From the NCBI GenBank assembly GCA_964401705.1, contig CAYNZJ010000001.1, positions 3,648-67,647 of the forward strand: a DNA stretch of 64,000 nucleotides. Direction: 5' to 3'. Shown here piece by piece: positions 1 to 23,560 of this stretch (the stretch's first letter is position 1; the number at the start of each line of letters is the position of its first letter). This stretch comes from an uncultured Candidatus Saccharibacteria bacterium (GTDB taxonomy: Bacteria > Patescibacteriota > Minisyncoccia > Phycocordibacterales > UBA9973). The notes beneath the pieces are model-generated. The model was given only the letters and a program-made list of their open reading frames with translations, was not told where the DNA came from and ran no database searches. Made by a program: the position numbers and the translations under genes.

Positions 1-4
1 TTTA

Positions 5-1267: not shown

Positions 1268-1281
1268 TGGAAAGTATAAAT

Positions 1282-3042: not shown

Positions 3043-3050
3043 TCAAGTAT

Positions 3051-4754
3051 ATGGAAAACCAAACAAAACAATGTCAATTTTGTAAGAATGATTTCGTTAT
3101 TGAAACAGAGGATTTTGCATTTTATGATAGGTTAAATGTCCCAGCACCAACTTGGTGCCCACAGTGTCGTTTTCAAAGAAGACTTAGTTTTTTAAACTGG
3201 CATAGTTTGTATAAAAGAAAGTGTGACAAATGTGATGCATCAATGATATCAGTACATCACGAGGACAAACCCTTCAGAGTATTCTGTAATCCATGTTACT
3301 GGAAAGACGATTGGGATGGTACCGAATATGCTATGGACTATGATCCTAATCGCAATTTCTTTGAACAAATGCTAGAACTTCGAAATAAATCAAATTATAT
3401 GGGGCAAGAAACATTATATTCTACTTTACAAAATACCCCATACGCTAATGCAGCTGCATACCAAAAGGATTGTTTTATGATATTTAATGCCGACTATGGC
3501 GAGCGTTGTGTATATAGTACATCTTATGCAAATTTAACAGAAAGTTTAGACACTTATAGGACAAATAGCAGTGAACTTTGTTTTGAATGTGTTGAAGCTT
3601 ATAAATGTTTTAAATGTATTTATAGTGAAAATATAGAATCATGCTCTAATGTAATGTTTTCAAAAAATTTATCTGGTTGTACTGATTGTTTCGGTTGTAT
3701 TAATTTGCGTAATAAAAATTATTATATTTTTAATCAAGAATATAGTAGGGAAGAATACAAAGAAAAAATAAAAAGTTTTAATTTAGACACACAAGATGGG
3801 GTAATAAATATGCTTGAAAAAGTTAAAAACTTTTATTTAACCCAACCATATCGTGCAACTATTGGTAATAGTATGAATTTAAATACAACAGGGGATATGG
3901 TATATGAATGTAAAAATGTCAAAAATGCTTACCAGGTTAGTAATACTGAAGATTCTAGATATATTCAAATGTTAATAATGGGGCCAACGAAGGATTGTTA
4001 TGACTATACTGTATGGGGTTATGGTGTAGAGAAATTATATGAATGCTTAACAGTAGGTGAAGGAGCATACAATACTCATTTTTCTGCACAATGTTGGCCA
4101 GCTGCGATTGAAAATGAATATTGTATGTACACAATACAATCTAAAAATTGTTTTGGTTGTGTTAATTTAAAAAGAAAACAATATTGTATTTTAAATAAAG
4201 AATACAGTAAAGAAGAATATGAAAAACTTCGTATCCAAATAATTGATGATATAAAAAATAATCCCTACATAGATAAAAATGGCCGAAAATGGAGTTATGG
4301 AGAATTTTTACCAATAGATTTATCATCTTACTCTTATAATGAAACTGTAGCTAATTCTATATTCCCACAAAATAAAGATTCAATAATAAATCAGGGTTAT
4401 TCTTGGTACGAAACAAAAGAAAATAATTATACTACGACTTTAAATAAAAACGATATCCCAAAAACTATTAATGAAACAACTGACGAGATTTTGGTAGAAG
4501 TTATGGAATGCAGTACTTGCCATAGAGCTTATAAAATAAATGAACAAGAATTATATTTATTACATAAACTAGGAATGCCAATACCATATGACTGCTGGAA
4601 ATGTCGACAAAACCGTAGATTTAAAATCATAAATCCACCAAAACTTTACAATAGAAACTGTGCTAAATGTAATAACGAAATCATTACATCTTATGCTCCA
4701 GATAGGCCAGAAATAGTTTATTGTGAAAAGTGCTACCAACAAGAAATAGTTTAG
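3051..4754 (+). CDS. Cys-rich multi-zinc-ribbon repeat protein, paralog C
   Basis: Same architecture as paralogs A and B. Ends PDRPEIVYCEKCYQQEIV, the same tail as paralog A. Confidence 0.55.
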   Translation: MENQTKQCQFCKNDFVIETEDFAFYDRLNVPAPTWCPQCRFQRRLSFLNWHSLYKRKCDKCDASMISVHHEDKPFRVFCNPCYWKDDWDGTEYAMDYDPNRNFFEQMLELRNKSNYMGQETLYSTLQNTPYANAAAYQKDCFMIFNADYGERCVYSTSYANLTESLDTYRTNSSELCFECVEAYKCFKCIYSENIESCSNVMFSKNLSGCTDCFGCINLRNKNYYIFNQEYSREEYKEKIKSFNLDTQDGVINMLEKVKNFYLTQPYRATIGNSMNLNTTGDMVYECKNVKNAYQVSNTEDSRYIQMLIMGPTKDCYDYTVWGYGVEKLYECLTVGEGAYNTHFSAQCWPAAIENEYCMYTIQSKNCFGCVNLKRKQYCILNKEYSKEEYEKLRIQIIDDIKNNPYIDKNGRKWSYGEFLPIDLSSYSYNETVANSIFPQNKDSIINQGYSWYETKENNYTTTLNKNDIPKTINETTDEILVEVMECSTCHRAYKINEQELYLLHKLGMPIPYDCWKCRQNRRFKIINPPKLYNRNCAKCNNEIITSYAPDRPEIVYCEKCYQQEIV

Positions 4755-5440
4755 AAATCTATTTCTTGTTCAGTTTTATTTAATTCGTCTATAGTATTAA
4801 TCTGATGCCAATGTTTTAAAATTATATAAGAAACTTTAACATTTGCTCCAAAAAGTGTATGCGGTATTCCAGCTTCGTCTCCAACATAAACTGGTTTATA
4901 ATTTAAAAAATCTGATGTTAATGTATAAGCTCCAGAAAAACAAATTACTGGTTTTTCTCTTTCTTCTTTTTTAATAAATCTAAAATTTGTGATTATTTTT
5001 GTATTTTCATTAATATCACAAGTTCTATATCTTTCATTTAAAATTTTATAACTAAGACCATAAGCAGGGGAATCTATTTTAATTAGTTCTTCTAAATCTT
5101 CTTTTAAAAAAATATCATCCCCATTTAAAACTAAAAATTTATCTTCATTTTTTATAACCTCACGACCAGCCATTAGTGCGTGATATGTGCCCTTGGTCAT
5201 TTCATCTTGAAATAAAAATTTAACTTTTTTACTTATTGCATTTTCTTGTAAAAATTTTTCAAACAAATCTAAATGTTTTTGTTTTATAACAATAAAAACT
5301 TCACTAATACTATCCGGCAAGGAAGAGAATATGTAAGATAAAATAGGCCGATCTTTTATTAAAATAAGTGGCTTTGGGGTATTATCAGTTAATGGTTTTA
5401 ATCGTTCACCATTACCGGCACATAGAATAAAAGCTTTCAT
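4751..5440 (-). CDS. sugar-phosphate nucleotidyltransferase family protein
   Basis: N-terminus MKAFILCAGNGERLKPLT...KPL is the G-x-G-x-R-L NTP_transferase signature. Confidence 0.6.
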   Translation of the reverse strand: MKAFILCAGNGERLKPLTDNTPKPLILIKDRPILSYIFSSLPDSISEVFIVIKQKHLDLFEKFLQENAISKKVKFLFQDEMTKGTYHALMAGREVIKNEDKFLVLNGDDIFLKEDLEELIKIDSPAYGLSYKILNERYRTCDINENTKIITNFRFIKKEEREKPVICFSGAYTLTSDFLNYKPVYVGDEAGIPHTLFGANVKVSYIILKHWHQINTIDELNKTEQEIDF

Positions 5441-5501
5441 TGGGCGAGTATATCATATAAAAAAACCCTTGTATATACTTTAAAATAAGTAACTACAAGG
5501 G

Positions 5502-6011
5502 CTAAAAGGTATATCCGTTCCAGCGAACTGGTTTGTTTAACAAACCACTGCGTATTCCATTTAGGAATTTCAACTTAAGTCGAATACTTCCTTCGTGGAT
5601 TAATTTTTGTTCAGCCATTTCGATAATCTGGGATAATGTTTTTATTTTTATCTCAGAAACCTCTAATGGGTCATTTGTTTTTAGTATGCTTGGCAAGTTG
5701 CAAATTTGAGCAATATATAAATGATTGTAATTAAATCCATTAGGTCTAATTTTTTTATAACAACCAAAATATGCAAAATTAAGTTGTATCCCAACTTCTT
5801 CAAGGCAAACTTCGCGATTTATCGCACTACGATGATGTTCATTTACATTTACACCACCACCCGGAAGACCACACATAAGTATACCGTCTCCTCGTCCTCG
5901 ATCATTATAATCTTGAACGAGTAAAAATTTTTGTTGAAATAAATCATGGCTGTTTTCTCCAACCATAATTATACCCTGAACACCGTCAGGAAGTTTGGTT
6001 AGATTTTCCAT
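5502..6011 (-). CDS. NUDIX hydrolase
   Basis: Nudix box GLPGGGVNVNEHHRSAINREVCLEEVGI (GX5EX7REUXEEXGU). Confidence 0.6.
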   Translation of the reverse strand: MENLTKLPDGVQGIIMVGENSHDLFQQKFLLVQDYNDRGRGDGILMCGLPGGGVNVNEHHRSAINREVCLEEVGIQLNFAYFGCYKKIRPNGFNYNHLYIAQICNLPSILKTNDPLEVSEIKIKTLSQIIEMAEQKLIHEGSIRLKLKFLNGIRSGLLNKPVRWNGYTF

Positions 6012-6100
6012 GTTTTTTAAAATTTAAATGAATATATCATATACGATATATTTAATCAATAAATAAAATCCCCTAAATAAATAGGGGATTTTATTATAAG

Positions 6101-6373
6101 TTAATCTATATGAACCTGTTTTCGGACTGTTTTAGAACCATCAAAATTGTTTTTCCTTTTGTTGGTAAATTTTACTGTACCATCTTTAAGAGCAAACAAT
6201 GTATGATCACGCCCTATACCAACGTTATTTCCAGGGAGTATTTTTGTTCCGCGTTGACGGATAATAATATTTCCAGCAATAACTTTTTCTCCAGCGTATT
6301 TTTTAGTACCTAGATACTTTGGTTTTGAGTCCTTCAGGTTCTTGGCGGAACCACCGGCTTTCCTATGTGCCAT
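6101..6373 (-). CDS. rpmA: 50S ribosomal protein L27
   Basis: [25 protein letters not shown]... is the typical L27 N-terminus; size is right. Confidence 0.9.
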
Positions 6374-6462
6374 ATTTTATATTTAAATTACTTATAAAAG
6401 ATATTTATACCCACGTGACAGGTAGATACTTTTTACTTTTATATTGTATAATAGGTAACATA

Positions 6463-6951
6463 ATGAATATAACAGAAATAAGCTATAAAATCAAGGCTTG
6501 GGTTCAAAGCCAATTTGGTCAAACCATAATAATTCTATTAATAATTATTATCTCCAATCTTATTAGCTTTAACATAGGTAAATCCTTAAATAATCCTAAT
6601 AATGAAGATTATTTAAACTCTGATAGTTATGAACAATATAGTCTTTCAGATGATACTAGATACCCAAATGGTAGCTTAACAGCCGCATTATATAATAGCT
6701 CTTTAAAGGCTCAAAATGGCTCTACAGGCTCAAATATAGCTCAAAATGGGGAAGTAGTAGGCCCTAATTTAAATACCCTGGATTTACCGACTTCCCGCTA
6801 TGTTGCCAGTAAAAATGGCCGAGTCTACTACTTTACCTGGTGTGCTGGTGGTAAAAATATAGATCCTGAAAAAAGAGTTTATTTTAATTCGGCACAAGAT
6901 GCTAGGGCAGCAGGATACAAAGCATCAACCGCATGTGCGGGGCTAGACTAA
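6463..6951 (+). CDS. hypothetical membrane-anchored protein
   Basis: Start moved to MNITEIS so it no longer overlaps rpmA. Has an N-terminal TM helix IIILLIIIISNLISF. Confidence 0.3.
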   Translation: MNITEISYKIKAWVQSQFGQTIIILLIIIISNLISFNIGKSLNNPNNEDYLNSDSYEQYSLSDDTRYPNGSLTAALYNSSLKAQNGSTGSNIAQNGEVVGPNLNTLDLPTSRYVASKNGRVYYFTWCAGGKNIDPEKRVYFNSAQDARAAGYKASTACAGLD

Positions 6952-6975
6952 GCTTTATTTATAGATTTATGTATA

Positions 6976-7042
6976 TGTCGCACAACATACTTTGTCAGAG
7001 GACAATGTCGCAACATGTCGAAGTTTTGCGACGAACGAATCG
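6976..7042. repeat. left boundary repeat (candidate attL), TGTCGCA/TGCGACA dyads
   Basis: tgtcgcacaacatac...tgtcgcaacatgtcgaagttttgcgacg. The same 14-mer recurs at 23533. Confidence 0.5.
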
Positions 7043-7103
7043 AGGCTTGTGAAGAATCATAAATCTAAACTGCAATTATTAATAAATTGATTTTCAATTT
7101 TAT

Positions 7104-7307
7104 ATGCCACAGTATTTAGGAATCTTTTCGCGCCACGATTATACAGACAATGAAGGTAACGCTCAAACCAGATGGTATAAGGCCGGTTACATGAAATTAA
7201 CAGAAAACGGAGGTAAGTTTTTACGCTTCTTCCATCAACCACAAACAGATTTTTTCTGTTTCGAAGGAGAACAAACACCATTGCCCGAAATTCATTTAGA
7301 AGACTAA
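7104..7307 (+). CDS. hypothetical small protein
   Basis: ORF only. Confidence 0.2.
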   Translation: MPQYLGIFSRHDYTDNEGNAQTRWYKAGYMKLTENGGKFLRFFHQPQTDFFCFEGEQTPLPEIHLED

Positions 7308-7319
7308 AGACAATTTTGT

Positions 7320-7823
7320 ATGTCTTTAGAATATACTACACCTGTTCCCAACAGGGTATTCGACTTTGACCTTGCAAAACTTAAAGAAGTTGAATTAAAA
7401 GTTCTGATGGTGGTCATTAGAAAAACCCACGGTTGGGTTGAACAAAAAAACCATCGGCAAAGGCGACAAATTCAACGCATTACAATAAATACTTTCGAAC
7501 TACTAACTGGAAGTTCAAGAAGAAGTATTTCAGGGGCTATTCAATCTCTGATTCAAAAAGAGCTTATCGTGGTCTATGACTATAACGGTAAGGTCTTGAA
7601 AGAAGCGGATGACCGAAAAGGAAAATACCATTTGTATTTTAAACCCAATATTCCACCTGTGGAAAACCACATACCTAGGCAAAATTTGCTCTTACCCTAC
7701 GAAAAATTCTCTCAGCAACCAAAGCAAAATTTGCTCAATACTATTAAAGAAAATATGGCAAAGAAAAATGAAAATATAAATTCATATCATATTAGCCACC
7801 ACATTAAAAATTACAGCCTATGA
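7320..7823 (+). CDS. RepA-like replication initiator / phage replisome organizer N-terminal wHTH domain protein
   Basis: ELKVLMVVIRKTHGW...LTGSSRRSISGAIQSLIQKELI matches the Rep initiator wHTH pattern (vLlyilrktyGw...ltGlsrrtv..al..L...glI). Confidence 0.55.
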   Translation: MSLEYTTPVPNRVFDFDLAKLKEVELKVLMVVIRKTHGWVEQKNHRQRRQIQRITINTFELLTGSSRRSISGAIQSLIQKELIVVYDYNGKVLKEADDRKGKYHLYFKPNIPPVENHIPRQNLLLPYEKFSQQPKQNLLNTIKENMAKKNENINSYHISHHIKNYSL

Positions 7824-8019
7824 CCCAAGACAACCCATTTGGAAATGAACACCGTAAAAATGTAATCGAAAAATTAATGAATGATGGATTAGTTAAGCGA
7901 ATCACAATCATAGAAGGGAACTATCCATCCCAAAAACAACAGCGAGATTTTTTAGACCGAATAATGGATTGGCTCAAAGGAAAGCGAAAGCATTACTAAC
8001 CCATAATCTCACATAAACA

Positions 8020-8367
8020 ATGTCTACAAAACAAAAACAATCCAATAAACCAATAAGTAACTGGCTACTCACTGAAAATGGAGTATACCTACTTATTGGC
8101 GATGGATACCGAATAACTTACAACCCTTCAACCTTATATACCTTCAACCTTAAAAAAGCTAAAGACCCACTCTTTCAATTTGAAGAGGATGAAGAAACAG
8201 AAGAAACTGCACTTTACATCAACGATACAGATTCATATCTAATCTTGGATGGAGACTTTCGAGCAGTATATGATGAATGTCAAAGTGTTGAAGAGTGCTT
8301 AGCTGTCTTCCGAAAATATGCTCCTTGGTACCGTTCAAAGTTCTGCTCCGGTCCAGATTCCATCTGA
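8020..8367 (+). CDS. hypothetical protein (possible antitoxin partner of downstream toxin)
   Basis: Sits directly upstream of the PemK-like gene with a 25-nt gap. No recognisable motif. Confidence 0.25.
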   Translation: MSTKQKQSNKPISNWLLTENGVYLLIGDGYRITYNPSTLYTFNLKKAKDPLFQFEEDEETEETALYINDTDSYLILDGDFRAVYDECQSVEECLAVFRKYAPWYRSKFCSGPDSI

Positions 8368-8391
8368 TTATAAGTATGTTAAAATAGAACT

Positions 8392-8781
8392 ATGTATTCA
8401 AAAGACTATGAGAAATGGAACATTTTAAAACAAAACCTTAATGCTATAAAAGGTCAAACCCTTCGTGTAAAAGAAGGGGAGATTTGGTGGTGTGCTATCG
8501 GCGTAAACATAGGAAATGAAATTGATGGTAAAAATGAGTTATACGAAAGGCCGGTAATTGTAATTAAAAAATTCCCTAATAACAGTTTTTTGGTAGTACC
8601 CCTTTCTAAAACAGAACGCGAACATCAATTTGCTATTCCTTTCGCCATCCAATCAAATCTATCTAAAGCTATAATCTCCCAAGTTAGAGTTGTAAGTCCA
8701 AAACGATTGATACGTCGGATGCACAAACTTTCTTCCAAGAAACTACTGGCAATCACCAATCACTTAAAGCGCATGATATAA
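8392..8781 (+). CDS. PemK/MazF-family toxin-like protein
   Basis: GEIWWCAIGVNIGNEIDGKNELYERPVIVI...VVPLSK resembles the MazF/PemK fold signature (G.i..v.f....G.E..k.RPavVl...). Confidence 0.45.
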   Translation: MYSKDYEKWNILKQNLNAIKGQTLRVKEGEIWWCAIGVNIGNEIDGKNELYERPVIVIKKFPNNSFLVVPLSKTEREHQFAIPFAIQSNLSKAIISQVRVVSPKRLIRRMHKLSSKKLLAITNHLKRMI

Positions 8782-8971
8782 AAAATCGGCTCCCCACAAT
8801 GTGAGGAGCCTCGGGGGCCTGACGGCCACTGGTAAACATAGTATACACCCTTTCAATGAAATTGAAAAGTGGTACTGTGGAAATCTCAACAAACACTAGC
8901 TAACTCTAAACTGGCTGTAAGCCGAAGAATCTGCTATTCATAAAATTTCAAACAACTTAATATTTTAAAAA

Positions 8972-9859
8972 ATGGAAACAAATTCAAAAACAAAAATCGA
9001 CATCTACGAAATGGTAACAGATCGTATTATTCAAAAACTCGAAGAGGGAATTATCCCTTGGCAACAACCCTGGACAGAAGCAGGCCTTCCTAAGAATTTA
9101 ATAACTCAGAAAGCCTACACCGGAATTAATGTCCTTCTCCTTGCATCTATGGGATTTGCTCGTAACTACTTTCTAACCTTCAAACAAATCCAAGAATTAG
9201 GAGGTTCTGTAAACAAAGGCGAAAAATCCATCCCAGTTATTTTTTGGAAGTGGTCTGAAAAAGAGGATCCGCAAACCAAAGAACTAAAAAAAGTCTCAAT
9301 GATACGGTACTATACTGTATTCAATGTAGACCAATGCACCGGAATACCCGAAGACAAGATACCTAAAGTTGTAAATAACAACTGTGAGATTGAGATGGGA
9401 GAGCTTGAAGCTATTATTGAAGAAATGCCAAACAAGCCACTAGTTCGCCATCTTTCATCTCAGGCCTATTATCACCCCAAGGAAGACTATATCAGTATGC
9501 CAATGATGAATGTTTTCAAAGATGCTGAAAGCTATTGGGGAACTCTATTCCATGAACTGATTCACTCTACCGGTCACCAAAGCAGACTTAACCGTAAAGA
9601 AATTGTTGAATGGACTAACTTTGGTTCTGAATCTTACTCCCAAGAAGAACTAGTTGCAGAAATCGGTGCTTGTTATCTTAAATCCCATTGTGGTATTGAT
9701 ACCAAACACTTTGAAAACAATGTTGCCTATATCCAAAACTGGCTCACTAAACTAAAGAATGACAAGCGGTTTATAATCTTCGCCAGTGCTAAAGCACAAA
9801 GGGCGGTGGATTATATATTACAGAAGGTACCTGTTGAAAAAGAGACAGTAGAATTTTAG
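8972..9859 (+). CDS. ardC: ArdC-like antirestriction protein (N-terminal ssDNA-binding DUF1738 + zincin-like metalloprotease)
   Basis: VTDRIIQKLEEGIIPWQQPW...YTGINVLLL...FLTFKQIQELGG, plus an HExxH motif (LFHELIHSTGH). Confidence 0.75.
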   Translation: METNSKTKIDIYEMVTDRIIQKLEEGIIPWQQPWTEAGLPKNLITQKAYTGINVLLLASMGFARNYFLTFKQIQELGGSVNKGEKSIPVIFWKWSEKEDPQTKELKKVSMIRYYTVFNVDQCTGIPEDKIPKVVNNNCEIEMGELEAIIEEMPNKPLVRHLSSQAYYHPKEDYISMPMMNVFKDAESYWGTLFHELIHSTGHQSRLNRKEIVEWTNFGSESYSQEELVAEIGACYLKSHCGIDTKHFENNVAYIQNWLTKLKNDKRFIIFASAKAQRAVDYILQKVPVEKETVEF

Positions 9860-9877
9860 TTATTTAAATTAAAAAAC

Positions 9878-9905
9878 AAACCCTGTGGTTGACATAGGGT
9901 TTTTA
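9878..9905. terminator. bidirectional rho-independent terminator
   Basis: aaaccctgtggttgacatagggttttt: a hairpin between convergent genes. Confidence 0.5.
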
Positions 9906-9915
9906 TTTGAAATGG

Positions 9916-10221
9916 TCAATCATTTTTTTCCATAGAGTAGCTAAAATCATACCAACCCTCTATTGTCATATCTCCTGCAAATCTCTTTTCTAATGTTGTA
10001 AGAAAGGCATCTTTTGCCTTATCAGATGCTAACATTAAAATATCATCCATGTAACTGCATTTTATAAAATACATATTTCCTTTAGATGTTGTTCGCATCG
10101 TACCTGTAAATCCGCCCCATTCTTGAAGTTCAGTAATTGACTTATATACACAATAGACATCGTTATAATCTTCAAGTTCAACTGCGTTAATCCATTCATT
10201 AAAATCTGTAATTGTTGCCAT
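9916..10221 (-). CDS. hypothetical protein
   Basis: ORF; start placed at MATITDF. Confidence 0.3.
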   Translation of the reverse strand: MATITDFNEWINAVELEDYNDVYCVYKSITELQEWGGFTGTMRTTSKGNMYFIKCSYMDDILMLASDKAKDAFLTTLEKRFAGDMTIEGWYDFSYSMEKND

Positions 10222-10304
10222 ATTAAAATAAAATATCAAAAACGAAGGTAATTAATATAAACGAGGATAATAATAATTAAATATAAAATCGATAATTTTA
10301 TCAA

Positions 10305-10328
10305 TTTGTTTGCAAATAGTTTGCAAAT
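10305..10328. promoter_or_regulatory. tandem palindromic TTTGCAAAT boxes (11-nt spacing), copy 1
   Basis: tttgtttgcaaatagtttgcaaat. TTTGCAAA is its own reverse complement. Same arrangement at 10525-10548. Confidence 0.45.
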
Positions 10329-10340
10329 CGTTCCAAATTA

Positions 10341-10364
10341 AAAGGGGTTTCATTTCTGAAACCC
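10341..10364 (-). terminator. rho-independent terminator immediately after tRNA-Leu fragment 3' end
   Basis: aggggtttcatttctgaaacccct is a perfect 10-bp stem, followed by a T-run on the minus strand. Confidence 0.5.
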
Positions 10365-10368
10365 CTTG

Positions 10369-10426
10369 TGGTGCGGATGATAGGACTCGAACCTACACGC
10401 CGCAAAGCACCAGATCCTAAGTCTGG
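10369..10426 (-). tRNA. partial tRNA-Leu(UAG), 3' portion only (anticodon arm, long variable arm, T-arm, acceptor 3' strand + CCA); probable att site
   Basis: Reverse complement reads CCAGA-CTTAGGA-TCTGG-TGCTTTGCGGCGT-GTAGG-TTCGAGT-CCTAT-CATCCGC-A-CCA. The matching 5' acceptor strand (GCGGATG) and D-arm are absent upstream. Confidence 0.55.
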
Positions 10427-10524
10427 CAAAATATGGTTTCATATGGTTTTATATGAATTAATATGTGTTGAATATCAGGTAATTATAATTTTATTGCCAT
10501 AAATGAAACCAAATAAAAGTAATA

Positions 10525-10548
10525 TTTGTTTGCAAATGGTTTGCAAAT
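10525..10548. promoter_or_regulatory. tandem palindromic TTTGCAAAT boxes, copy 2, directly upstream of integrase start
   Basis: tttgtttgcaaatggtttgcaaat ends 12 nt before the ATG at 10561. Confidence 0.45.
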
Positions 10549-10560
10549 TATCTTTGTGAT

Positions 10561-11787
10561 ATGGCTTTCAGTGTTCGAATAGTATTAGATGATAGAAACC
10601 GAAAAAGGGATGGTTTTCCGTTGGTCTTAAGAATTATCGCAAATCGCCATAGTACTTCGATTCCATTGGGTTTATCTTTAGAACTGAATGAATGGAACGA
10701 AAAAAACCAAACAATCCGTACTTCCTGTCAAAAGTTATCGAATGTGACCAGAGAGAATGCTAAGATAACTAAAAAGAGCCAAGAAGCATTTGAGATACTA
10801 TCCCAATTGGATGAAGATGGTGAACTCACCAAAATGAGTATCTCAGATATTAAAAAACGCATCCTAAAAGAAAATAAGCCGACCTTGCTAAGTGATTATA
10901 CAAAAGAAATAATCTCCGAAATGAAGGCTACTGGTAGACTTGGTAATGCCAGATCTTACCACGAATTCTTGCAATGGGTAATAAAATACAACGGGACAGC
11001 AGATATTCCTTTGGAATATTTAACACTGTTATGGATTAAAAAGATGGAACAGAAGTTTTTATCAGCAGGGAATTCGATTAATGGTCTTGGCGTTAAACTT
11101 CGATCCTTAAGAGCTCTTTTAAATAGAGCTATATCGGAAAACTTATTTTCTAAAGAATCCTATCCTTTTAGTCAGTATAAAATAAAAAAACAGGAAACCG
11201 CAAAAAGGGCATTACCTAAAGCTGCAATAACCAAACTTATTAATACACCTATTGAAACTGACCAAATACTAGAAAGGACCAGACGTATATTTCTAATCTC
11301 ATTTTATATGCGTGGAGCCAGTTTTTCGGATATCTGCTTTTTAAAAGTTGGCGATATTAATGATAACCGTATTTACTACAACCGGAGAAAAACTTCAAAA
11401 CTATATAGCATATCTATTTCTGAGCCATTAGCAGAACTTCTTAAACATTTTACCAAAGGAAAAACGGGTAACGATTTTATTTTACCATTTCTAAAAAAGG
11501 AAATGACTTTAGAACAAGCATACTCAGTTTCAAGGTCTGCTCTCGGTGAATACAATAAGAACCTTCGATCACTGGCAATGCATTTTGAGATAAAAGCTGA
11601 TTTCATGTCAACAAATACAATAAGGCACTCTTTCGCATCACTTGCTAGAGATTCAGGCGTGGATGTATCGACTGTTAGTAAAATGCTTGGCCACAGTGAT
11701 TTAAAAACAACTCAAATTTATCTCGCAAGTATAAGCGATGAAACTATCGATGAAGCGTTTGAAATGGTAATGGGTAATTTGGCTTAA
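10561..11787 (+). CDS. int: tyrosine-type site-specific integrase
   Basis: C-terminal catalytic box IRHSFASLARDSG...LGHSDLKTTQIYL (HxxR ... Y). Confidence 0.8.
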   Translation: MAFSVRIVLDDRNRKRDGFPLVLRIIANRHSTSIPLGLSLELNEWNEKNQTIRTSCQKLSNVTRENAKITKKSQEAFEILSQLDEDGELTKMSISDIKKRILKENKPTLLSDYTKEIISEMKATGRLGNARSYHEFLQWVIKYNGTADIPLEYLTLLWIKKMEQKFLSAGNSINGLGVKLRSLRALLNRAISENLFSKESYPFSQYKIKKQETAKRALPKAAITKLINTPIETDQILERTRRIFLISFYMRGASFSDICFLKVGDINDNRIYYNRRKTSKLYSISISEPLAELLKHFTKGKTGNDFILPFLKKEMTLEQAYSVSRSALGEYNKNLRSLAMHFEIKADFMSTNTIRHSFASLARDSGVDVSTVSKMLGHSDLKTTQIYLASISDETIDEAFEMVMGNLA

Positions 11788-11821
11788 CCTCAATTGCAGA
11801 TACTAAAGTAAATATTTAATT

Positions 11822-12100
11822 TTGACGGACATGGAAATAATATGTCTGGAATCAGATGCGCTCTATAATCTCGTTGAAAAGGTTGTTGAAAGATTGAAGT
11901 TACTGGATGGAGTCGCTCAAGAAAAGTGGATATCTGATGTTGAAGCCATGCGAATTTTGAACATAAAATCAAAAACAACCTTACAACATCTTCGCGATGA
12001 TGGAAGTCTAAAATACTCTCAACCAATGAAAAAGGTGATTCTTTACGATAGAGAATCTATAAATGAATATTTAGAAAAACACTCAAAAGATAAATTTTAA
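11822..12100 (+). CDS. xis: excisionase-like HTH (HTH_17) DNA-binding protein
   Basis: WISDVEAMRILNIKSKTTLQHLRDDGSLKYSQPMKKVILYDRESINEYL fits the excisionase-family HTH pattern. Sits directly after int. Confidence 0.5.
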   Translation: MTDMEIICLESDALYNLVEKVVERLKLLDGVAQEKWISDVEAMRILNIKSKTTLQHLRDDGSLKYSQPMKKVILYDRESINEYLEKHSKDKF

Positions 12101-12101
12101 A

Positions 12102-12389
12102 ATGGAAGAACTAGAAGTAACTCCACCGGAACAATATTTAAAAGGATTTAATAAAGGATATAGTTTTTCAAAAACATATCCTGATGCAGGTCAGCAGGTA
12201 TTAGATATTTTTTCTTCTCAAACTAACCTTTCCAGTGAAAATGACTTTACCTCAGTTACTGGTATGATTGATGGAATTAATCAACATAAAATTGAACAAG
12301 AAAGAGAATTGATAAATGAAAGCTTGGAGGATATCAAGGATTTACGAAATCAACAGGCTGAGGAAAAGTCTCCTGACCTAAATATTTAG
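12102..12389 (+). CDS. hypothetical acidic protein
   Basis: ORF only. Confidence 0.25.
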   Translation: MEELEVTPPEQYLKGFNKGYSFSKTYPDAGQQVLDIFSSQTNLSSENDFTSVTGMIDGINQHKIEQERELINESLEDIKDLRNQQAEEKSPDLNI

Positions 12390-12475
12390 TATAGTAAAAT
12401 AATAATGATACAAGAAGAGGATTTGTCGGTTGGAGAATCGGCAGAAAGCAATATTGTATTGAGGCTAATGCCATG

Positions 12476-12504
12476 ATAGGACTGATTTCAGTCCTATTTT
12501 TTTA
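12476..12504 (+). terminator. rho-independent terminator; also contains 11-nt direct repeat of the tRNA-Leu fragment (ATGATAGGACT)
   Basis: ataggactgatttcagtcctat hairpin followed by ttttttt. Confidence 0.5.
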
Positions 12505-12557
12505 TTTCATGGTTGTGTCTCTAGATGGCTTCTACTCAAAAACAAAATGCTATATTT

Positions 12558-14033
12558 TTATACCATTGGTTGAAAATCTAAATAATATTTAGCATTAAGT
12601 TCATTTTCAAATAAACATACGTTATTTTCATAAAAAGTTATGGTTGAGTAAATAGGATTTAAACATATATTACCTTCACTAGTTAATGCGCCCATTTTAT
12701 TATTATTTTTGATGAGTAAATAGAATAAATGTAGTTTTCTTTTTTTAAAATTTACAACTCTTTCATAATCAATAACACTTGTAACCATTTCATTATTGTT
12801 TTTATCGAACCCAACCACTTCTTTTGTAAATCCAAGATTTTTGAGAAAATATGGTTGCTTTTTAGGTGAATCTAAAAGCATATTACCAAATATGCCAAGA
12901 ATTTCAAATTTTGTCGATTTGGTTCCAACAATTTCTCCGTTAAACAAGTATAGCTTGTCATTTTTAATAAATAGAAATATTTTCTTATTATTCATAGAAT
13001 AAAAGGTGAGACAAAACTCGAAATCAATCTTTATTACATATTTTAAATCATCACAATCCTTAAGATACTCTGTTAAAAAAATATCTCCAACGATAACGGG
13101 TTTATCATTTTGTTTTACTTCCTCAATTGAAACACTCTTTTGAGTGTCTAAAACAATTTTGTTATAAAATGTGGGTTTAATTTCAAGGGAATCCTTCTTT
13201 TGTTTATCTTTTACAAGTAAATGATTAGCTTTATTAGGAACCTCACTAATAGACTCTATGGATTTATTTTTTGCTAACTGATATTTTACTATTTCTTGAT
13301 TTAAGGCATTATTCTTCGTATTGAGTGAATTAATTTCCTTCTGCAAATCTTGTTTTGATTTTTCAAGACCAATAATTGAATTATTGAGATTTTTTAGTTC
13401 AACCTTATTGTTTTTCTCGATCTCACTATTTTCATTTTTTAATATATGAATTTGGTCCTGCAATACAATTTTTTCATTCGAAAAAGCCATTTTGATTTCT
13501 TCTATTTGCAATTCATACTTCTTTTGGATAAAAGGTTCTTGATAGTTCTTTCTCTGATTTGCCAAATCTCTTATGTTTAATTCGTTTAAAAAAGTAGAAA
13601 GTTTACTTGATTTTTCAAAATCAAAATGCACAAGAGCCTTAGGGATTTTTATATTAAATTCAAGTTTAAAAAAATTTAAAATATGTTCATAAATTAGCTG
13701 TTCTATTTGATTAATTTCTAACTGCTTAGACTTTTTAATGGGTTTAGAAGAAACTTTATGAGTTGAGTTATTTCGATATTTTCTAAATGCTTGCAGGATA
13801 TTTTTATTCTTCACATAAAACGAATATTTCACATTTAATTCGCCTAAAGACTGCATCAACATAAGGTTGTCATAATAGAACTTATTACTATTACCTTCTT
13901 TTAAAAAGACCTGTGTTTCAGCTATCTTTTCACAAACTAAATGTAAAGCTTCTTTTTTGTCCTTATCAATCTCACTTGAAACCGATATATGGAAAGCCAA
14001 TAAAATTTCTTTTAATTGTTCATAAATATTCAT
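12558..14033 (-). CDS. hypothetical protein, N-terminal domain + central coiled coil + C-terminal beta-rich domain; translationally coupled to RtcR-like regulator
   Basis: Its start overlaps the stop of the upstream regulator by 14 nt. Long heptad-like stretch (EIKMAFSNEKIVLQDQIHILKNENSEIEKNN...). No motif I recognise. Confidence 0.35.
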   Translation of the reverse strand: MNIYEQLKEILLAFHISVSSEIDKDKKEALHLVCEKIAETQVFLKEGNSNKFYYDNLMLMQSLGELNVKYSFYVKNKNILQAFRKYRNNSTHKVSSKPIKKSKQLEINQIEQLIYEHILNFFKLEFNIKIPKALVHFDFEKSSKLSTFLNELNIRDLANQRKNYQEPFIQKKYELQIEEIKMAFSNEKIVLQDQIHILKNENSEIEKNNKVELKNLNNSIIGLEKSKQDLQKEINSLNTKNNALNQEIVKYQLAKNKSIESISEVPNKANHLLVKDKQKKDSLEIKPTFYNKIVLDTQKSVSIEEVKQNDKPVIVGDIFLTEYLKDCDDLKYVIKIDFEFCLTFYSMNNKKIFLFIKNDKLYLFNGEIVGTKSTKFEILGIFGNMLLDSPKKQPYFLKNLGFTKEVVGFDKNNNEMVTSVIDYERVVNFKKRKLHLFYLLIKNNNKMGALTSEGNICLNPIYSTITFYENNVCLFENELNAKYYLDFQPMV

Positions 14034-15570
14034 CTACATCCTTCAAATATTTTTTAAGAGTGTTTATTGAACCGATCCCTAGTGCTTTTTGGGCTTTTGA
14101 CAAATTTCCATTAAAAATGGCTACTACGGATTTAACATGTGCTTTTATAACTTCATTTAGTTTTAACGATTTAATATTAAGGTTCTTAACTCTCTCAGGA
14201 AGATTTTCGGTGTCTATTATTTCCAAGCCGAATGCATAAAATCTTTCCACAATGTTCTGTAATTCTCTAATATTCCCAGGCCATGAGTGATTGTATAGAA
14301 TTTTCATAGCATTAGGAGTGAATTCAAGAAGTTTTCTTTTACTACCCATTTCATTTTGGAATCTAGTATTGAAAAAGTTTAACAATGCTTTTATATCGTT
14401 TGTACCTCGCTGTCTCAAAGGTGGTAAAGAAATTTCTGCAACAGACAATCTATAGTATAAATCCCAACGGAAACTTCCTTTTTCGCATTCTTCATAAAGA
14501 TTTTTATTAGTCGCAGCAATAATTCTCAAATTAATTTTTTCTGAATTCGTACTTCCAACCTTTTGTATTTCACCTTCTTGCAATACCCTGAGTAGTGCAA
14601 TCTGCATTTGAGGATTTATGTCGCCAATTTCGTCTAAAAAAATTGTTCCACTATTGGCCGAATGAAAATAGCCATCTGTTGTCTCTATGGCATTGGTAAA
14701 TGCACCTTTTACATATCCAAACAACCTACTTTCTAATAAATCTGGACTAATCGCTGCACAATTCACGGTAACATACGGGCTATTATATCTTGAAGAATTT
14801 TTATGAATAAACTTTGCCACATGTTCTTTTCCAGTGCCGGTTTCACCTTCAATTAGAACAGTAGTTTTTTGAGTTAACGCAATTTCTTTTGCTAACTTAT
14901 AAACTGGTATGATTTTATCTGTGATGCAATAATTATCAAGGTCTTCTTCTGCTGATTTCTTATTTCTGGGTTTTACTAGATTCTCATGAATTATTAGAAA
15001 ATCAGTAATTGTTGAACTGCTAAATTGAATTTGAACCAAATTTGGATTTCCTGTTCCAGTATCTTCTTTTTTAATAGTTTGGAACAATCTAGTGTTTGCC
15101 TTAAACTCCATATGGAGCATATACCATACAACTTGCATAGTTGGAGTTCCTGGGGACACAAAAAAATCAATGTTAAATTGTTTAAATTCCAGAATCAAAG
15201 GGTAAAGAGCAGCATGTATTAAGTTAAAGTTTATGACATCTTGTGGCGCTAAGGCCATATAACGCAATTCAATTTGATGGAGTGGAAATGATTTTTTTAA
15301 TGTTGAAAACAAAGTTAGTCCTTTGGTGTATTCCTGACTACTTGACTCAGTTGATAGAAGAATGTGTTTGTCATAACCTTTAAAAAAGTGCTGATGAAAA
15401 CTATATGTTGGACCATTAGTATTAATGCGATTATTTTCAAAATCATTAGTTGCTGCTAACCACGAAATGAGAATTTTCGGCATATTTAAAATTAGAAAAA
15501 TCAAATCTATTATCAAATTTTGATAATTACAAGCAGATAATGAATACGAGCATTTCCAAATCAGAATCAT
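14020..15570 (-). CDS. RtcR-like transcriptional regulator: CARF-like N-domain + sigma54-interaction AAA+ domain (GAFTNA variant) + Fis-type HTH
   Basis: Walker A GETGTGKE, then ESRLFGYVKGAFTNA, WPGNIRELQNIVER, and a C-terminal LSKAQKALGIGSINTLKKYL HTH. The N-domain segment FVSPGTPTMQVVWYML..TRLFQ resembles E. coli RtcR HITTGTHVAQICWFLL..ARLIQ (from memory). Confidence 0.7.
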   Translation of the reverse strand: MILIWKCSYSLSACNYQNLIIDLIFLILNMPKILISWLAATNDFENNRINTNGPTYSFHQHFFKGYDKHILLSTESSSQEYTKGLTLFSTLKKSFPLHQIELRYMALAPQDVINFNLIHAALYPLILEFKQFNIDFFVSPGTPTMQVVWYMLHMEFKANTRLFQTIKKEDTGTGNPNLVQIQFSSSTITDFLIIHENLVKPRNKKSAEEDLDNYCITDKIIPVYKLAKEIALTQKTTVLIEGETGTGKEHVAKFIHKNSSRYNSPYVTVNCAAISPDLLESRLFGYVKGAFTNAIETTDGYFHSANSGTIFLDEIGDINPQMQIALLRVLQEGEIQKVGSTNSEKINLRIIAATNKNLYEECEKGSFRWDLYYRLSVAEISLPPLRQRGTNDIKALLNFFNTRFQNEMGSKRKLLEFTPNAMKILYNHSWPGNIRELQNIVERFYAFGLEIIDTENLPERVKNLNIKSLKLNEVIKAHVKSVVAIFNGNLSKAQKALGIGSINTLKKYLKDVDEYL

Positions 15571-15935
15571 ATTTTAGATATCGTACTTGTTAAAATCAAA
15601 AAAGTACCTTGTATGGTTTGAAATGGGAAACAAACTTAAATATTGAATAAGGATAACCTTTTTGCAAAAAGTAAATAAAAAACCCCCTCATATGTGAGGA
15701 GGCCGAAGATTTTTCAACAGTGTAAGTAGCAATTGCCTCTAACCTGATTAATGATCGCGATTCACCAATCAGAGGTACCAGGTTCATCGGGTACTGGTAT
15801 ACATACAATCATAAAGAACATCTTCGTAGGAGCCTTGCATAAAGTATAGCATAAAGTTATTTAAATGTCAAGATTAATTAATTGTAAATCAATTATATAC
15901 AGTGAAATGCTTATTAGAATTACGAAAAAATAAAA

Positions 15936-15955
15936 ACCCTCAATTTTAATTGAGG
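15936..15955 (-). terminator. hairpin + T-run on minus strand (possible terminator of a minus-strand non-coding transcript)
   Basis: ccctcaattttaattgaggg is a perfect 9-bp stem. The minus-strand reading is followed by tttttatttttt. Confidence 0.3.
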
Positions 15956-15967
15956 GTAAAGAATTTG

Positions 15968-16130
15968 TTGATGTAGAAGCCTCAGAATTCACCATGCCTC
16001 ACGCCTAAGACTGGATGTAAGATAAGGAGGGCCACCAACGCCCTTTTGACATCAATGTTGATGTAGAGGCCTTTAAGATTTGCCATATAAATATGGTTGG
16101 GTTAAACAAAAAGGGCCACCAATCATTGTA
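15968..16130. repeat. two ~17-nt direct repeats TTGATGTAGARGCCT, each followed ~85 nt later by AGGGCCACCAA
   Basis: Seen at 15968 and 16056; one copy lies within the palindrome ACATCAATGTTGATGT. Confidence 0.4.
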
Positions 16131-16373
16131 ATAGTCGAAGAACTAACTCTTTGTTCAATTGTAGCATATTTGATATTATTTGTCAAATAATGATAATAAA
16201 AGTCAATAAATGAATACAAATAAAGAATAAATTTCACATTGCCATTTTTTAATGTATTGATTATGAGTAATATGTATTTTATTTAAAATTAGGTAACCAA
16301 TTTGTATTTTCTAAAGCAAAATTGATTTAAACCCAAACTAACAAATCTCAATTAAAACTCAAAACGTAAAAAC

Positions 16374-17516
16374 ATGGAAAACAAAAACACAATCGTCTAC
16401 ACAAACTATCACCATGAAGGAATTGACAACTACCTCGCATCATGGAAAAAACAAACTTCATCAGAAGTGCAACTAAAGGCGAAAACCAACGCCGGAAAGA
16501 AATTACCGAAAGCTATCGGTGATGATTTTAAACGGTACATTGGTTACTTTAAGGAAAAAGCTCAGGAATGTCTTCGAGACATAGATCGAATCTTAAAAAT
16601 CACTCCTGTTTTATTCAAGATCAAACAATTACGCGATAAACGCGATGAGATGGTCTTTAAAGCTAATGGAAAAAAGGAGGAGTTGGAATCAAAATCTGTT
16701 TCGCTCAATCCTGATGCCAATCACGCCGAACACAAATTAGTTAGAGCCGGTTCCATAATCGCTTTACTTATTCTTGTACTACTAAGCACAGCAGAGACCT
16801 TTCTGTCTTACAAACCGTTCTATTATCTAACAGGTAACAAAGTTTCCACCTGGACTATTTGTATTGTATTCGCAATACTTTGGATAATCGGAGCCGAGAA
16901 ATTTTCTAAGTTCATCAAAGATCAAGCGATTACAAAAAAAGGTATCAAACTTTTCTTTATTATCATAGCCTGCACCTTTGTATTCTATAGCATCGCCCAT
17001 TTACGTGTTTTAGAGAAAGCTTGTTCACGAGCTATTTTAAACGAAGAACCAATCCCAAGCTTTTTTGCTATCAACTTTACTGAAGCTTTAGTCCTTACAG
17101 GAATAGGCTGGGTGTTTTTCATCGGTGGGGTTTGGGTTTCTCAACTATCGCCATCTATTCAAGAAGTTAGGCAAGCCCTGATCCAAAGATTTAACCGAAG
17201 GAAGGCATTAAAAATTCAAAAGGAAATCTTACTTCTACAAGCTGAAATTGACGCAGAAAACGAAAAAATAGCCAAAGAAGAGCATGCAGCCATTTCTCTC
17301 TTAAATATACGTAAGCAGGCAATTAAGGAGGTTGTAGGCTATCTAGAATTCCTTTGCGAGGAGTACAAGGAGGTTAACTATTCATCACGTGTTGATGGTG
17401 TTTACCCCGACTGCTTTAACGAAAAGGTAACTTATGACATGGATACAATTGTACCTAATATCAAGGAAGATCTGGAATTTCAAATGGATAACGCTAACGC
17501 ATCTAAACTTAAATAA
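16374..17516 (+). CDS. hypothetical polytopic membrane protein with C-terminal coiled coil
   Basis: Several predicted TM helices (IIALLILVLLS, WTICIVFAILWIIG, LFFIIIACTFVFYSI, LVLTGIGWVFFIGGVWV). Confidence 0.3.
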   Translation: MENKNTIVYTNYHHEGIDNYLASWKKQTSSEVQLKAKTNAGKKLPKAIGDDFKRYIGYFKEKAQECLRDIDRILKITPVLFKIKQLRDKRDEMVFKANGKKEELESKSVSLNPDANHAEHKLVRAGSIIALLILVLLSTAETFLSYKPFYYLTGNKVSTWTICIVFAILWIIGAEKFSKFIKDQAITKKGIKLFFIIIACTFVFYSIAHLRVLEKACSRAILNEEPIPSFFAINFTEALVLTGIGWVFFIGGVWVSQLSPSIQEVRQALIQRFNRRKALKIQKEILLLQAEIDAENEKIAKEEHAAISLLNIRKQAIKEVVGYLEFLCEEYKEVNYSSRVDGVYPDCFNEKVTYDMDTIVPNIKEDLEFQMDNANASKLK

Positions 17517-17518
17517 TT

Positions 17519-18217
17519 ATGAAGACACTAATATTTACATCACTCATTCTAATTCTAATTGGATGTTCAGAAAACAAAGGAATTATCGAAAAGGAAGTCG
17601 TCTGTGTCATTGATGGCACAGATACTACCATCCATAAACCATCATTCAAAGAAATCAAACCCTTTTTGAATTTAACCGACAATGATTTTGGGTTGGTCTT
17701 TAAAACTAAAATGATAGGGGATATTGATTTCGGAAATTCTTTCGAGCTAAGTTTAAGCCCCAAGGATTATAGTATCGACGAAACCATTGAAGATCGGTTT
17801 TTCCGAAAAAAGAAGTTTTTAAAACATGCTCAGGCCGGATATTTAAAAGTTTCCTCCACCGCAACTCCTAAGGATCACTCAATAATTTATCGGGTAATCG
17901 CCAAGGAACTTAATAAGTTATCAGGTTCAAAAGCCAAACAGCGTACCTTGTTGGTAAACTCAGATCTTATGGAGAATTCAAAGGAACTTAATTTCTATAA
18001 TCCGAGACACTATAGCCTACTAATGAACAGCCCATGTGAAGTGGAGAAATTACTTATTAGACAATTGAAATTAATGGATTTAAAAGGCATTGAAGTTTAT
18101 TTCCTTTTTCAGCCAAAAGATTTCTATCAGAACGATACGTACAAAGCAATCTTGGACATTTATATCAAGATAATTAGCGAGGCAGGCGGGGTTTGTAAAA
18201 TCGGTAATGAATCTTGA
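17519..18217 (+). CDS. hypothetical lipoprotein
   Basis: Signal peptide with lipobox MKTLIFTSLILILIGC. Confidence 0.35.
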   Translation: MKTLIFTSLILILIGCSENKGIIEKEVVCVIDGTDTTIHKPSFKEIKPFLNLTDNDFGLVFKTKMIGDIDFGNSFELSLSPKDYSIDETIEDRFFRKKKFLKHAQAGYLKVSSTATPKDHSIIYRVIAKELNKLSGSKAKQRTLLVNSDLMENSKELNFYNPRHYSLLMNSPCEVEKLLIRQLKLMDLKGIEVYFLFQPKDFYQNDTYKAILDIYIKIISEAGGVCKIGNES

Positions 18218-18267
18218 CAATTTCGGCTTGAAAAGCGAAAATGTAACTACAGAAGTATCAGAATTAA

Positions 18268-18297
18268 AACGGGGATTGGAATTCATTCCCCGTTTTA
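18268..18297 (+). terminator. rho-independent terminator
   Basis: aaacggggattggaattcattccccgtttt. Confidence 0.45.
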
Positions 18298-18329
18298 TCT
18301 TAAACAATCGAATAATAGAATAATTATAA

Positions 18330-18506
18330 ATGGCTCACAAACAACATAGCGGTGGTATCGGCAACTTTCTATTGGGGGCAATAAAATTTATCGTGAAAGT
18401 CATATTTAGAATATGTGTTTTAGTATTGGTATTCATCGGTAAATTAATTGTCGCAATACTCGAAAAGATTATAGAGGTGGCGGAACACAAACATAATAAA
18501 CACTAA
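18330..18506 (+). CDS. small membrane protein (58 aa; not in supplied ORF track)
   Basis: MAHKQHSGGIGNFLLGAIKFIVKVIFRICVLVLVFIGKLIVAILEKIIEVAEHKHNKH. Sits directly upstream of the coupling-protein gene. Confidence 0.25.
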   Translation: MAHKQHSGGIGNFLLGAIKFIVKVIFRICVLVLVFIGKLIVAILEKIIEVAEHKHNKH

Positions 18507-18518
18507 CCAAATAAACAT

Positions 18519-19952: not shown

Positions 19953-19974
19953 TTCCACCTTTTAAATATTCAAA

Positions 19975-20418: not shown

Positions 20419-20433
20419 TTTTTACAACACTCA

Positions 20434-21760: not shown

Positions 21761-21884
21761 AAAAGGGGAATCGAAAGGGTCTCCCTTCGCAAGATCACAT
21801 GACCATTGGTCTGTAAGAATTACAGTCGACCGAGGGTCATGTTATCTTGCCAACTGCGCGTTGGGGCGTTTTAAACACTTGACA

Positions 21885-22316: not shown

Positions 22317-22339
22317 TTAACACATCAAAAAATAAATTA

Positions 22340-22368
22340 AGGGAGATTTCACTCCCTTTTTTATATTT
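22340..22368 (+). terminator. rho-independent terminator
   Basis: aagggagatttcactcccttttttat. Confidence 0.5.
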
Positions 22369-23532: not shown

Positions 23533-23560
23533 GTCGCACAACATAGATTTTGCGACATAT
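23533..23560. repeat. right boundary repeat (candidate attR)
   Basis: tgtcgcacaacatagattttgcgaca repeats the 14-mer and the TTTTGCGAC motif seen at 6976-7042. Confidence 0.5.

Follow-up and report, generated by a model that had tools for sequence, protein, structure and literature searches.

Among described integrative systems, the one closest to the locus considered here is NBU1, a mobilizable element of Bacteroides that combines a tyrosine integrase (IntN1), a small excision protein encoded next to int (Orf2x), a relaxase module, and an attachment (att) site whose core derives from a tRNA-Leu gene (PMC5704250; PMC6764341). The same traits recur in a Bacteroidota mobilizable element found in a 64,000-nucleotide stretch of contig CAYNZJ010000001.1 (assembly GCA_964401705.1), hereafter called the window. 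Positions 10305–12498 of the window are read as a complete, unrecombined integration module of the Bacteroidota arm-binding integrase family, made up of an element-borne att site (attP), an integrase gene, a Xis-like gene, and a small open reading frame (ORF); a rough probability of 0.7 is attached to this reading. It builds on direct observation of the anatomy, of both arms recurring family-wide, of split and unsplit states in relatives, and of the outer junctions of the surrounding island. What had appeared to be the scar of an integration into a tRNA gene is resolved in this way as a standard attP-int-xis module.

The module is of a known kind, that of the NBU1-like tRNA-targeting mobilizable elements, and is likened to them by att layout and gene content. 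As in those elements, the att core is the 3′ part of a tRNA gene, and the element encodes its own relaxase without a full conjugation apparatus. The regenerated tRNA and displaced fragment of an NBU1-like insertion are not seen around the window copy, which has no tRNA-Leu gene within the 64-kb stretch and whose ends are of the Xer type. The window copy also differs from NBU1 in encoding a coupling protein and in its attP, which is unsplit owing to the element's position within another integrated element. Moreover, the core of NBU1 is reportedly short and confined to the extreme 3′ end of the tRNA gene, whereas that of the window is a block running from the anticodon stem to the CCA.

Another described system is the 10K island of Riemerella anatipestifer (Flavobacteriia), which carries an IntN1-like tyrosine integrase beside tRNA-Arg, and where int plus a short attP on a suicide plasmid was enough for site-specific integration (PMC6764341). 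That island differs in having a 53-bp repeat downstream of the tRNA, in the absence of any described double-box motif, and in excising without an island-encoded helper (PMC6764341).

A third comparison is with lambda Int and with IntDOT of CTnDOT, which share with the window a three-domain integrase with an N-terminal arm-binding domain, asymmetric arm sites on both sides of the core, and an accessory or directionality protein (PMC2817482). Unlike theirs, the arm motif of the window is a tandem pair in 11-bp phase with the same orientation on both arms, and motifs of this type are common to integrases targeting at least nine tRNA species and one protein gene. IntDOT, in contrast to the window integrase, uses non-tRNA targets and tolerates heterology in the overlap region (PMC2817482).

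A fourth is the IntS-type module of KplE1, an enterobacterial prophage with an integrase of another lineage. Its integrase promoter overlaps the att region and is negatively autoregulated; the overlap is reported to be widespread among tRNA-associated integrases, and autoregulation is predicted for many of them (PMC2951348). An att arm also overlaps the likely integrase promoter in the window, which predicts the negative autoregulation that was demonstrated in KplE1 (PMC2951348).

Anatomy of the attachment site

The features of the module are as follows.

10305–10328, plus strand: putative P′-arm double box TTTGTTTGCAAATAGTTTGCAAAT, two 10-bp boxes in 11-bp phase
10342–10367, minus strand: hairpin terminator right after the tRNA 3′ end, an 11-bp stem and then a T-run
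10369–10427, minus strand: tRNA-Leu(UAG) 3′ fragment, the attP core, 59 nt
10428–10524, no strand: AT-rich P-arm spacer from core to box 2, 97 nt
10525–10548, plus strand: putative P-arm double box TTTGTTTGCAAATGGTTTGCAAAT, overlapping the likely int promoter
10561–11787, plus strand: tyrosine integrase, 408 aa, with Arm-DNA-bind_5, Phage_int_SAM_5, and Phage_integrase domains
11831–12100, plus strand: HTH_17 protein (PF12728, E = 9e-8), 89 aa as called, candidate excisionase or directionality factor
12102–12389, plus strand: small ORF, 95 aa, co-transcribed with int and xis
12475–12498, plus strand: terminator of the int-xis-orf95 unit, which in part holds a chance 11-mer copy at 12473–12483

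The minus strand of 10369–10427 reads GCCAGACTTAGGATCTGGTGCTTTGCGGCGTGTAGGTTCGAGTCCTATCATCCGCACCA and comprises the anticodon arm, long variable arm, T arm, 3′ acceptor strand, and CCA of a type II tRNA-Leu, with the anticodon UAG at 10417–10419. When the Rfam tRNA model was applied in a permissive search, only the 3′ part aligned, with a score of 20 bits (gathering score 29), because the 5′ acceptor strand is left unpaired. The complete tRNA-Leu(UAG) of Bacteroides finegoldii matches the fragment at 94.7% identity over 57 nt; the agreement extends up to ...AGTCTGGC and ends exactly beyond the 5′ strand of the anticodon stem. No 5′ half of a tRNA-Leu lies within the 64-kb window, in which ARAGORN, and Rfam at its gathering threshold, found only a tRNA-Ile (40914–40986). 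A complete or split tRNA-Leu at the site was ruled out by these two programs together with the missing 5′ half.

Behind the 3′ end of the fragment, a hairpin with a T-run occupies 10367–10342 of the minus strand, and relatives have a hairpin at the same position. Fragment and hairpin together fold with a z of −4.1. The hairpin is carried by the element so that the regenerated tRNA gene gets terminated. At the other end of the block, the anticodon stem-loop (10410–10426) reads CCAGA/CTTAGGA/TCTGG in the tRNA sense and is the predicted pair of core sites with the overlap region between them. The tRNA fragments of relatives end at or beside the anticodon loop, and the extent of the tRNA-identical block, from the anticodon stem to the CCA and on through the terminator, points to a crossover in that loop.

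The fragment is bracketed by two copies of a 24-mer, TTTGTTTGCAAATRGTTTGCAAAT, at 10305–10328 and 10525–10548. These are its sole copies in the window, where none is expected by chance, and all four exact copies of the box GTTTGCAAAT in the window lie inside them. On both arms the boxes are paired in tandem, in 11-bp phase, and in the same orientation; at 10330, behind the first pair, stands a third, degenerate unit, GTTCCAAAT. There are 40 nt between the end of box 1 and the CCA and 12 nt between the end of box 2 and the int ATG (10561), while the distance from the T-loop to box 2 is 141 nt, compared with 125–157 nt in most relatives. A repeated arm-type motif on both sides of the core is what marks a lambda-type attP, and the window has it. 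Since the 40-nt and 141-nt distances are close to the family ranges, the site in the window is an unsplit attP, and since both arms surround one core, it is also an unrecombined one at which the integrase has not acted. The site is unused in this genome.

Much of this anatomy had been anticipated by the first-pass annotation. A minus-strand tRNA-Leu 3′ fragment was proposed there and is confirmed by the 3′-only Rfam alignment and the B. finegoldii match, as is the fragment's own terminator hairpin by the stem and T-run described above; the lack of a matching 5′ half extends across the whole window, and no complete tRNA-Leu could be recovered, tRNA-Ile being all that ARAGORN and Rfam see. The positions likewise agree with two double-box copies bracketing the fragment, the second 12 nt before the int ATG. 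The idea of an att site left behind by integration into a tRNA 3′ end needs amending: an att-site core it is, but one belonging to an unsplit attP, with no junction or scar. The boxes had been offered as Int or Xis arm sites or as an operator, of which the arm role stands, both arms being marked in dozens of relatives; the overlap of box 2 with the likely promoter would make the operator role an additional one.

The integrase and its neighbors

The domain make-up of the integrase (Arm-DNA-bind_5, E = 1.6e-9; Phage_int_SAM_5, E = 1.6e-12; Phage_integrase, E = 8.8e-16) is that of an arm-binding, heterobivalent tyrosine integrase, and in an alignment of homologues the R355-H356, H378, and nucleophile Y387 columns are retained. 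In records of cultured Bacteroides and Parabacteroides isolates, the identity of its nearest relatives does not exceed 30%. A relative with 86% integrase identity retains both the HTH_17 gene next to int and the 95-aa ORF, for which no family match was found.

The double box as a family-wide arm motif

Metagenome contigs were scanned for GTTTGCAAATNGTTTGCAAAT, and at least 119 contigs carry GTTTGCAAAT-N-GTTTGCAAAT, while three viral contigs have an exact double box. Among the matches listed, to which all counts in this section refer, 126 box sites were classified after the loci had been oriented on the box. In the largest class (43/126), the box lies directly before an ORF with the N-terminal motif LDxRRxKKDGxYP of the arm-binding integrases, and upstream of such boxes there is regularly a hairpin and a tRNA 3′ fragment, some 100–140 nt from the box. 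At 35 further sites a complete minus-strand tRNA comes next, and its distance from the box falls into narrow clusters: 44–48 nt in 17 cases, 56–58 nt in 7, and ~190–212 nt in 8 that involve tRNA-Val(UAC). At least nine tRNA species stand next to boxes. A T-loop-like sequence occurs downstream at 13 sites, and 4 are at contig ends.

Of the proteins encoded downstream of boxes, 28 could be aligned with the integrase of the window, at identities of 22–64%. Phage_int_SAM_5 was detected in all of them, Phage_integrase in 26, and Arm-DNA-bind_5 in 23. Their N-terminal residues 5–40 are the most conserved, with a mean pairwise identity of 45%; the core-binding and catalytic domains reach 35–36%, and the N-terminal region taken as a whole (1–100) reaches 31%.

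Integrated copies among the relatives carry boxes at both ends. A complete integrated element of ~5 kb at tRNA-Val (L018) has, at one end, a hairpin, a tRNA-Val fragment, a spacer, a double box, and the integrase and, at the other, a box, the same hairpin, and the complete tRNA-Val; a second element (L038) has the same layout for tRNA-Leu(UAA) with a degenerate far box. In both, the P′-type box marks the tRNA-proximal end, and the insertion lies between a complete, regenerated tRNA and the displaced fragment, which is not true of the window copy. With boxes at both ends of these elements, the two box positions are therefore the P and P′ arms of an att site common to the family, which appear in these elements as attR and attL. 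An unsplit state occurs as well: in L087 both arms surround a single fragment, as in the window, and because its left side holds replication-type genes and L018-type cargo, this locus is a circle or a tandem junction.

The target need not be a tRNA gene. In two relatives (L062 and L084), a small double-box element whose boxes are ~3.77 kb apart is inserted, with no tRNA, at the start codon of ahcY. A 17–24-nt duplication of the ahcY start lies near each box, 135 nt away on the integrase side and 51 nt on the far side, and the complete ahcY stands behind the far box. The box is kept on both arms, whichever the target.

The box is likewise the constant part when integrases diverge. Box 2 is kept exactly in relatives with integrases 86%, 64%, and 63% identical, and the P-arm spacer diverges among relatives around a constant core and box. 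The 86% relative (L140) retains the tRNA-Leu(UAG) fragment and box 2 with a diverged spacer, whereas the two at 63–64% (L001 and L141) combine an identical box with a tRNA-Arg(UCU) fragment; in L001, at 64%, the double box is directly before the start codon and the tRNA-Arg(UCU) 3′ fragment ~100 nt upstream. The core therefore changes with the integrase and the box does not. At 37–38% integrase identity, variant tandem boxes, GAGTGCAAAT twice and CTGTGCAAAT twice, occupy the same position (L143, 9971–9991; L144, 9961–9981), suggesting that arm sites follow a general NNNTGCAAAT code, which may vary in step with the N-terminal domain.

In the viral-contig scans, neither the core/spacer junction nor the Xer-type site of the outer element described below gave a match. 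Small gut-virome contigs with related integrases were considered as circular attP forms and set aside, as no boxes are on them.

A feature of assembly also touches the core. All contigs with this integrase, with its 99% and 86% relatives, or with orf107 either repeat the context seen here or end within the tRNA fragment. Two independent assemblies, one with this integrase (L139) and one with the 86% relative (L140), break at the same base of the variable arm, their position 1 corresponding to window position 10399. Such breaks fit a situation in which the samples hold further copies of the T-arm and acceptor part, for example in a resident tRNA-Leu gene.

Another role for the boxes has to be considered, because box 2 coincides with promoter-like elements. 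TTTG at 10525–10528 is followed after 20 nt by TATCTTTG at 10549–10556, with box 2 in the spacer, and all four close relatives have TATNTTTG behind the box, 4–5 nt before the ATG. The arrangement of TTTG with TATCTTTG or TATNTTTG resembles the Bacteroidota promoter consensus; a sigma-70 promoter scan is uninformative for Bacteroidota. Accordingly, the double boxes could be mainly transcriptional, as a promoter or operator for a conserved regulator or host factor or as sites for the HTH_17 protein, and the identity of the motif across integrases only 22–35% identical, unusual for co-evolving arm sites, would fit such a role. We consider this unlikely. The boxes of the far arm have only the hairpin and an oppositely oriented tRNA downstream, so that a regulator bound there would have no gene to act on; on either arm the spacing to the core is held within limits, whichever target is used; the arm-binding N-terminal segment is the most conserved part of the integrases, matching the conserved motif; and the more distant integrases go with variant boxes. 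The two roles are also compatible. With box 2 overlapping the likely int promoter, bound integrase would repress its own gene, and by analogy with KplE1 such autoregulation is a reasonable expectation.

Judging from the survey, many integrative elements of environmental Bacteroidota appear to carry the same short tandem motif at their two ends, whichever tRNA or gene they use as target, and the motif could be of use in mapping the limits of islands and in constructing integration vectors. A bolder proposal, which we hold tentatively and at slightly less than even odds, is that tandem NNNTGCAAAT boxes (mostly GTTTGCAAAT, in 11-bp phase) are a universal code for Arm-DNA-bind_5 throughout a very large family of Bacteroidota integrases, with the target set wholly by a swappable core (the ahcY start and at least nine tRNA species), and that the window module is a portable, spare docking system in a composite element brought into the chromosome by another, unrelated recombinase. 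If so, there would be a simple sequence-based rule for marking the limits of mobile elements in Bacteroidota genomes, as well as a route to retargetable integration vectors for Flavobacteriia and their relatives. No description of the motif was found in the searchable literature, a search that does not take in key older papers on NBU1 and CTnDOT arm sites and so does not establish novelty.

How the module might work

From this anatomy we infer protein binding, the crossover position, autoregulation, and present activity, and a working model can be put as follows. The P′ pair lies 40 nt past the tRNA 3′ end, behind the element-borne terminator, and the P pair ~100 nt from the core, before int. 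The arms of the anticodon stem would serve as core-type sites with a predicted crossover in the anticodon loop. The N-terminal domain of the integrase would sit on the boxes, and its core-binding and catalytic domains on the anticodon stem-loop. Recombination with a chromosomal tRNA-Leu(UAG) would then insert the element and rebuild the tRNA from the element's 3′ half and terminator, and the HTH_17 protein would direct excision.

One could conceive instead that the site is itself a junction, either a displaced fragment of an element once integrated at tRNA-Leu or the internal junction of a tandem array, later moved or decayed. The order of fragment, spacer, box, and int does have the look of integrated ends in relatives, mobile-type genes stand on both sides of the site, and L087 could be just such a tandem junction; indeed, mobilizable elements commonly accrete in tandem at tRNA sites (PMC5704250). 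Even so, this explanation is rather less probable still than a mainly transcriptional role for the boxes. The 64-kb window has no tRNA-Leu gene or second fragment, the island ends are of the Xer type instead of tRNA junctions, no second integrase of the family is found on the left, and the DNA on that side carries a P′-type double box at the family-typical distance, which makes it arm DNA and not chromosome.

Several points weigh against reading 10305–12498 as a complete, unrecombined module. In the close relatives at 63–64% integrase identity (L001 and L141), no far-end box or complete tRNA-Arg was seen within 11 kb, and the evidence for the P′ arm therefore comes from integrases only 22–35% identical. 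No copy of the element, or of a relative with more than 86% integrase identity, was found integrated in tRNA-Leu(UAG), and gut Bacteroides relatives of the integrase are without the box motif. Among the 126 box sites, 31 fit no class. As for the surroundings, the reading offers no account of how an intact attP came to lie within the outer element, and a clean empty site for that element was not found, an island-less variant (L128) keeping a remnant.

The 11-nt repeat

The first-pass annotation had further proposed a nested, minimal integrative unit, a 2.1-kb int-xis cassette bounded by an integration-born 11-nt direct repeat. The 11-mer ATGATAGGACT does occur at 10377 and, as had been stated, again within the terminator at 12473–12483, in the same orientation and with no third exact copy in the window, and a same-strand match within 3 kb is uncommon in simulation (~1%). 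Repetition at many places, which would have told against an att repeat, is thus not seen for ATGATAGGACT itself; two other 11-mers of the 58-nt fragment, however, recur at unrelated positions, 24335 (in asnB, on the opposite strand) and 59854. In fact, 35% of simulated 64-kb sequences contain such an 11-mer match, and two copies were reached in 39 of 100 shuffles when up to one mismatch was allowed. The two copies share no similarity beyond the 11 bases, and the second is simply one arm of the terminator stem (12475–12498). Nor does the cassette fit the family, where the element ends are double boxes and a core of 17 to ~88 nt instead of a T-arm 11-mer; box 1 and half of the tRNA fragment would fall outside it. 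The repeat is a chance match at background level, and there is therefore no evidence for a cassette bounded by it. As a nested unit the cassette is very improbable indeed, and this spurious model can be removed.

The mobilizable segment and the outer element

Nesting does occur here, though on a scale other than that of the 2.1-kb cassette: the module lies in a mobilizable segment, which in turn lies in a 16.5-kb mobile island with the following features.

6976–6989, plus strand: left copy of the 14-bp core TGTCGCACAACATA, left junction of the outer element
9817–22557, no strand: mobilizable segment carrying the attP module, 12.7 kb, absent from the relative L145
18519–19952: coupling protein (PF02534)
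20434–20880: NikA-like protein, a weak sub-threshold match (E = 0.0057, 17 bits with a cutoff of 27)
20870–21760: relaxase (PF03432)
22618–23340, plus strand: Xer-like tyrosine recombinase without its first 46 codons, homologues being ~290–320 aa
23532–23545, plus strand: right copy of the 14-bp core, within the 11-6-11 site GTGTCGCACAA-CATAGA-TTTTGCGACAT
5655–5745 of L145: region of the uninterrupted site

The 12.7-kb segment holds orf107, attP, int, xis, the gene for a RtcR-like regulator, and those for the coupling protein, the NikA-like protein, and the relaxase; no further genes of a type IV secretion system were seen between 6976 and 23545, and no oriT was located. Within the island as a whole, Pfam and PADLOC place a RepO-like protein, a PemK toxin, and ArdC to the left of the att site and the RtcR-like regulator, coupling protein, NikA-like protein, relaxase, and Xer-like recombinase to its right. 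The flanks are chromosomal, with rpmA on the left and asnB, gltX, and rplI on the right.

In the right-hand site, inverted arms of 11 bp enclose a 6-bp centre. In this respect, and in its short core duplicated at the junctions and a recombinase gene directly upstream, the outer element is like the Xer-like integrative elements; it differs in having its own recombinase instead of host XerCD and in the loss, in this copy, of the first 46 recombinase codons. To our knowledge, its site is unlike known dif sequences. Judging from a switch in gene orientation and GC skew around it, the island may lie near a replication terminus, and a link between the Xer-type site and dif is pure speculation. An island ending at a tRNA was ruled out, as the right end is without one and the ends are the 14-bp core.

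The relative L145 shows what the outer element looks like without the segment. In it, a full-length Xer-like homologue (92% identical) directly precedes a single, unbroken site, behind which come the left-end genes of the window: its positions 4716–5699 correspond to window 22558–23544 and its positions 5687–8527 to window 6976–9816, overlapping by 13 nt of the repeat. Because the two ends are joined in L145 through one site, the island ends are attL and attR of the Xer-like recombinase. Only ~3.9 kb (recombinase, site, and the RepO-to-ArdC genes) is common to both; window 9817–22557 is unrelated to L145, and its edges replace the last ArdC codons and the first 46 recombinase codons. An unrelated 83-aa ORF stands where the 5′ end of the recombinase gene should be (window 22381–23340). 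With those 46 codons missing and this ORF in their place, the outer element is probably unable to excise by itself.

The whole is read as a 12.7-kb mobilizable segment with an intact attP module inside the remnant of a Xer-type integrated element, next to asnB, and neither recombinase can obviously move the segment now. The composite provides a clear case of element-in-element accretion, in which an intact attP is stranded in a Xer-type element with a truncated recombinase.

The island-less variant L128 (GCA_013565695.1 contig, 560–1151) retains the last 236 nt of the island's right end at 93% identity, with the flank beyond the site 100% identical. Between the same flanks it also has 343 nt of unrelated DNA with two ~75-nt repeats, and the whole looks like a decayed earlier occupant of the same site.

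Within the segment, the RtcR/PspF-like CARF-AAA-HTH regulator (PADLOC, E = 1e-128) overlaps a 491-aa coiled-coil-like protein on the minus strand (12558–15570). The latter gave no family match, and the two may be a signalling or defence cargo pair. Elsewhere in the window, genes in 1–6000 are on the plus strand with positive GC skew, and those in 23600–64000 are on the minus strand with negative skew. Three tandem paralogues of 420, 599, and 567 aa occupy 5–4754; they have internal repeats and, with no other family match, a C-terminal treble-clef zinc-finger-like motif.

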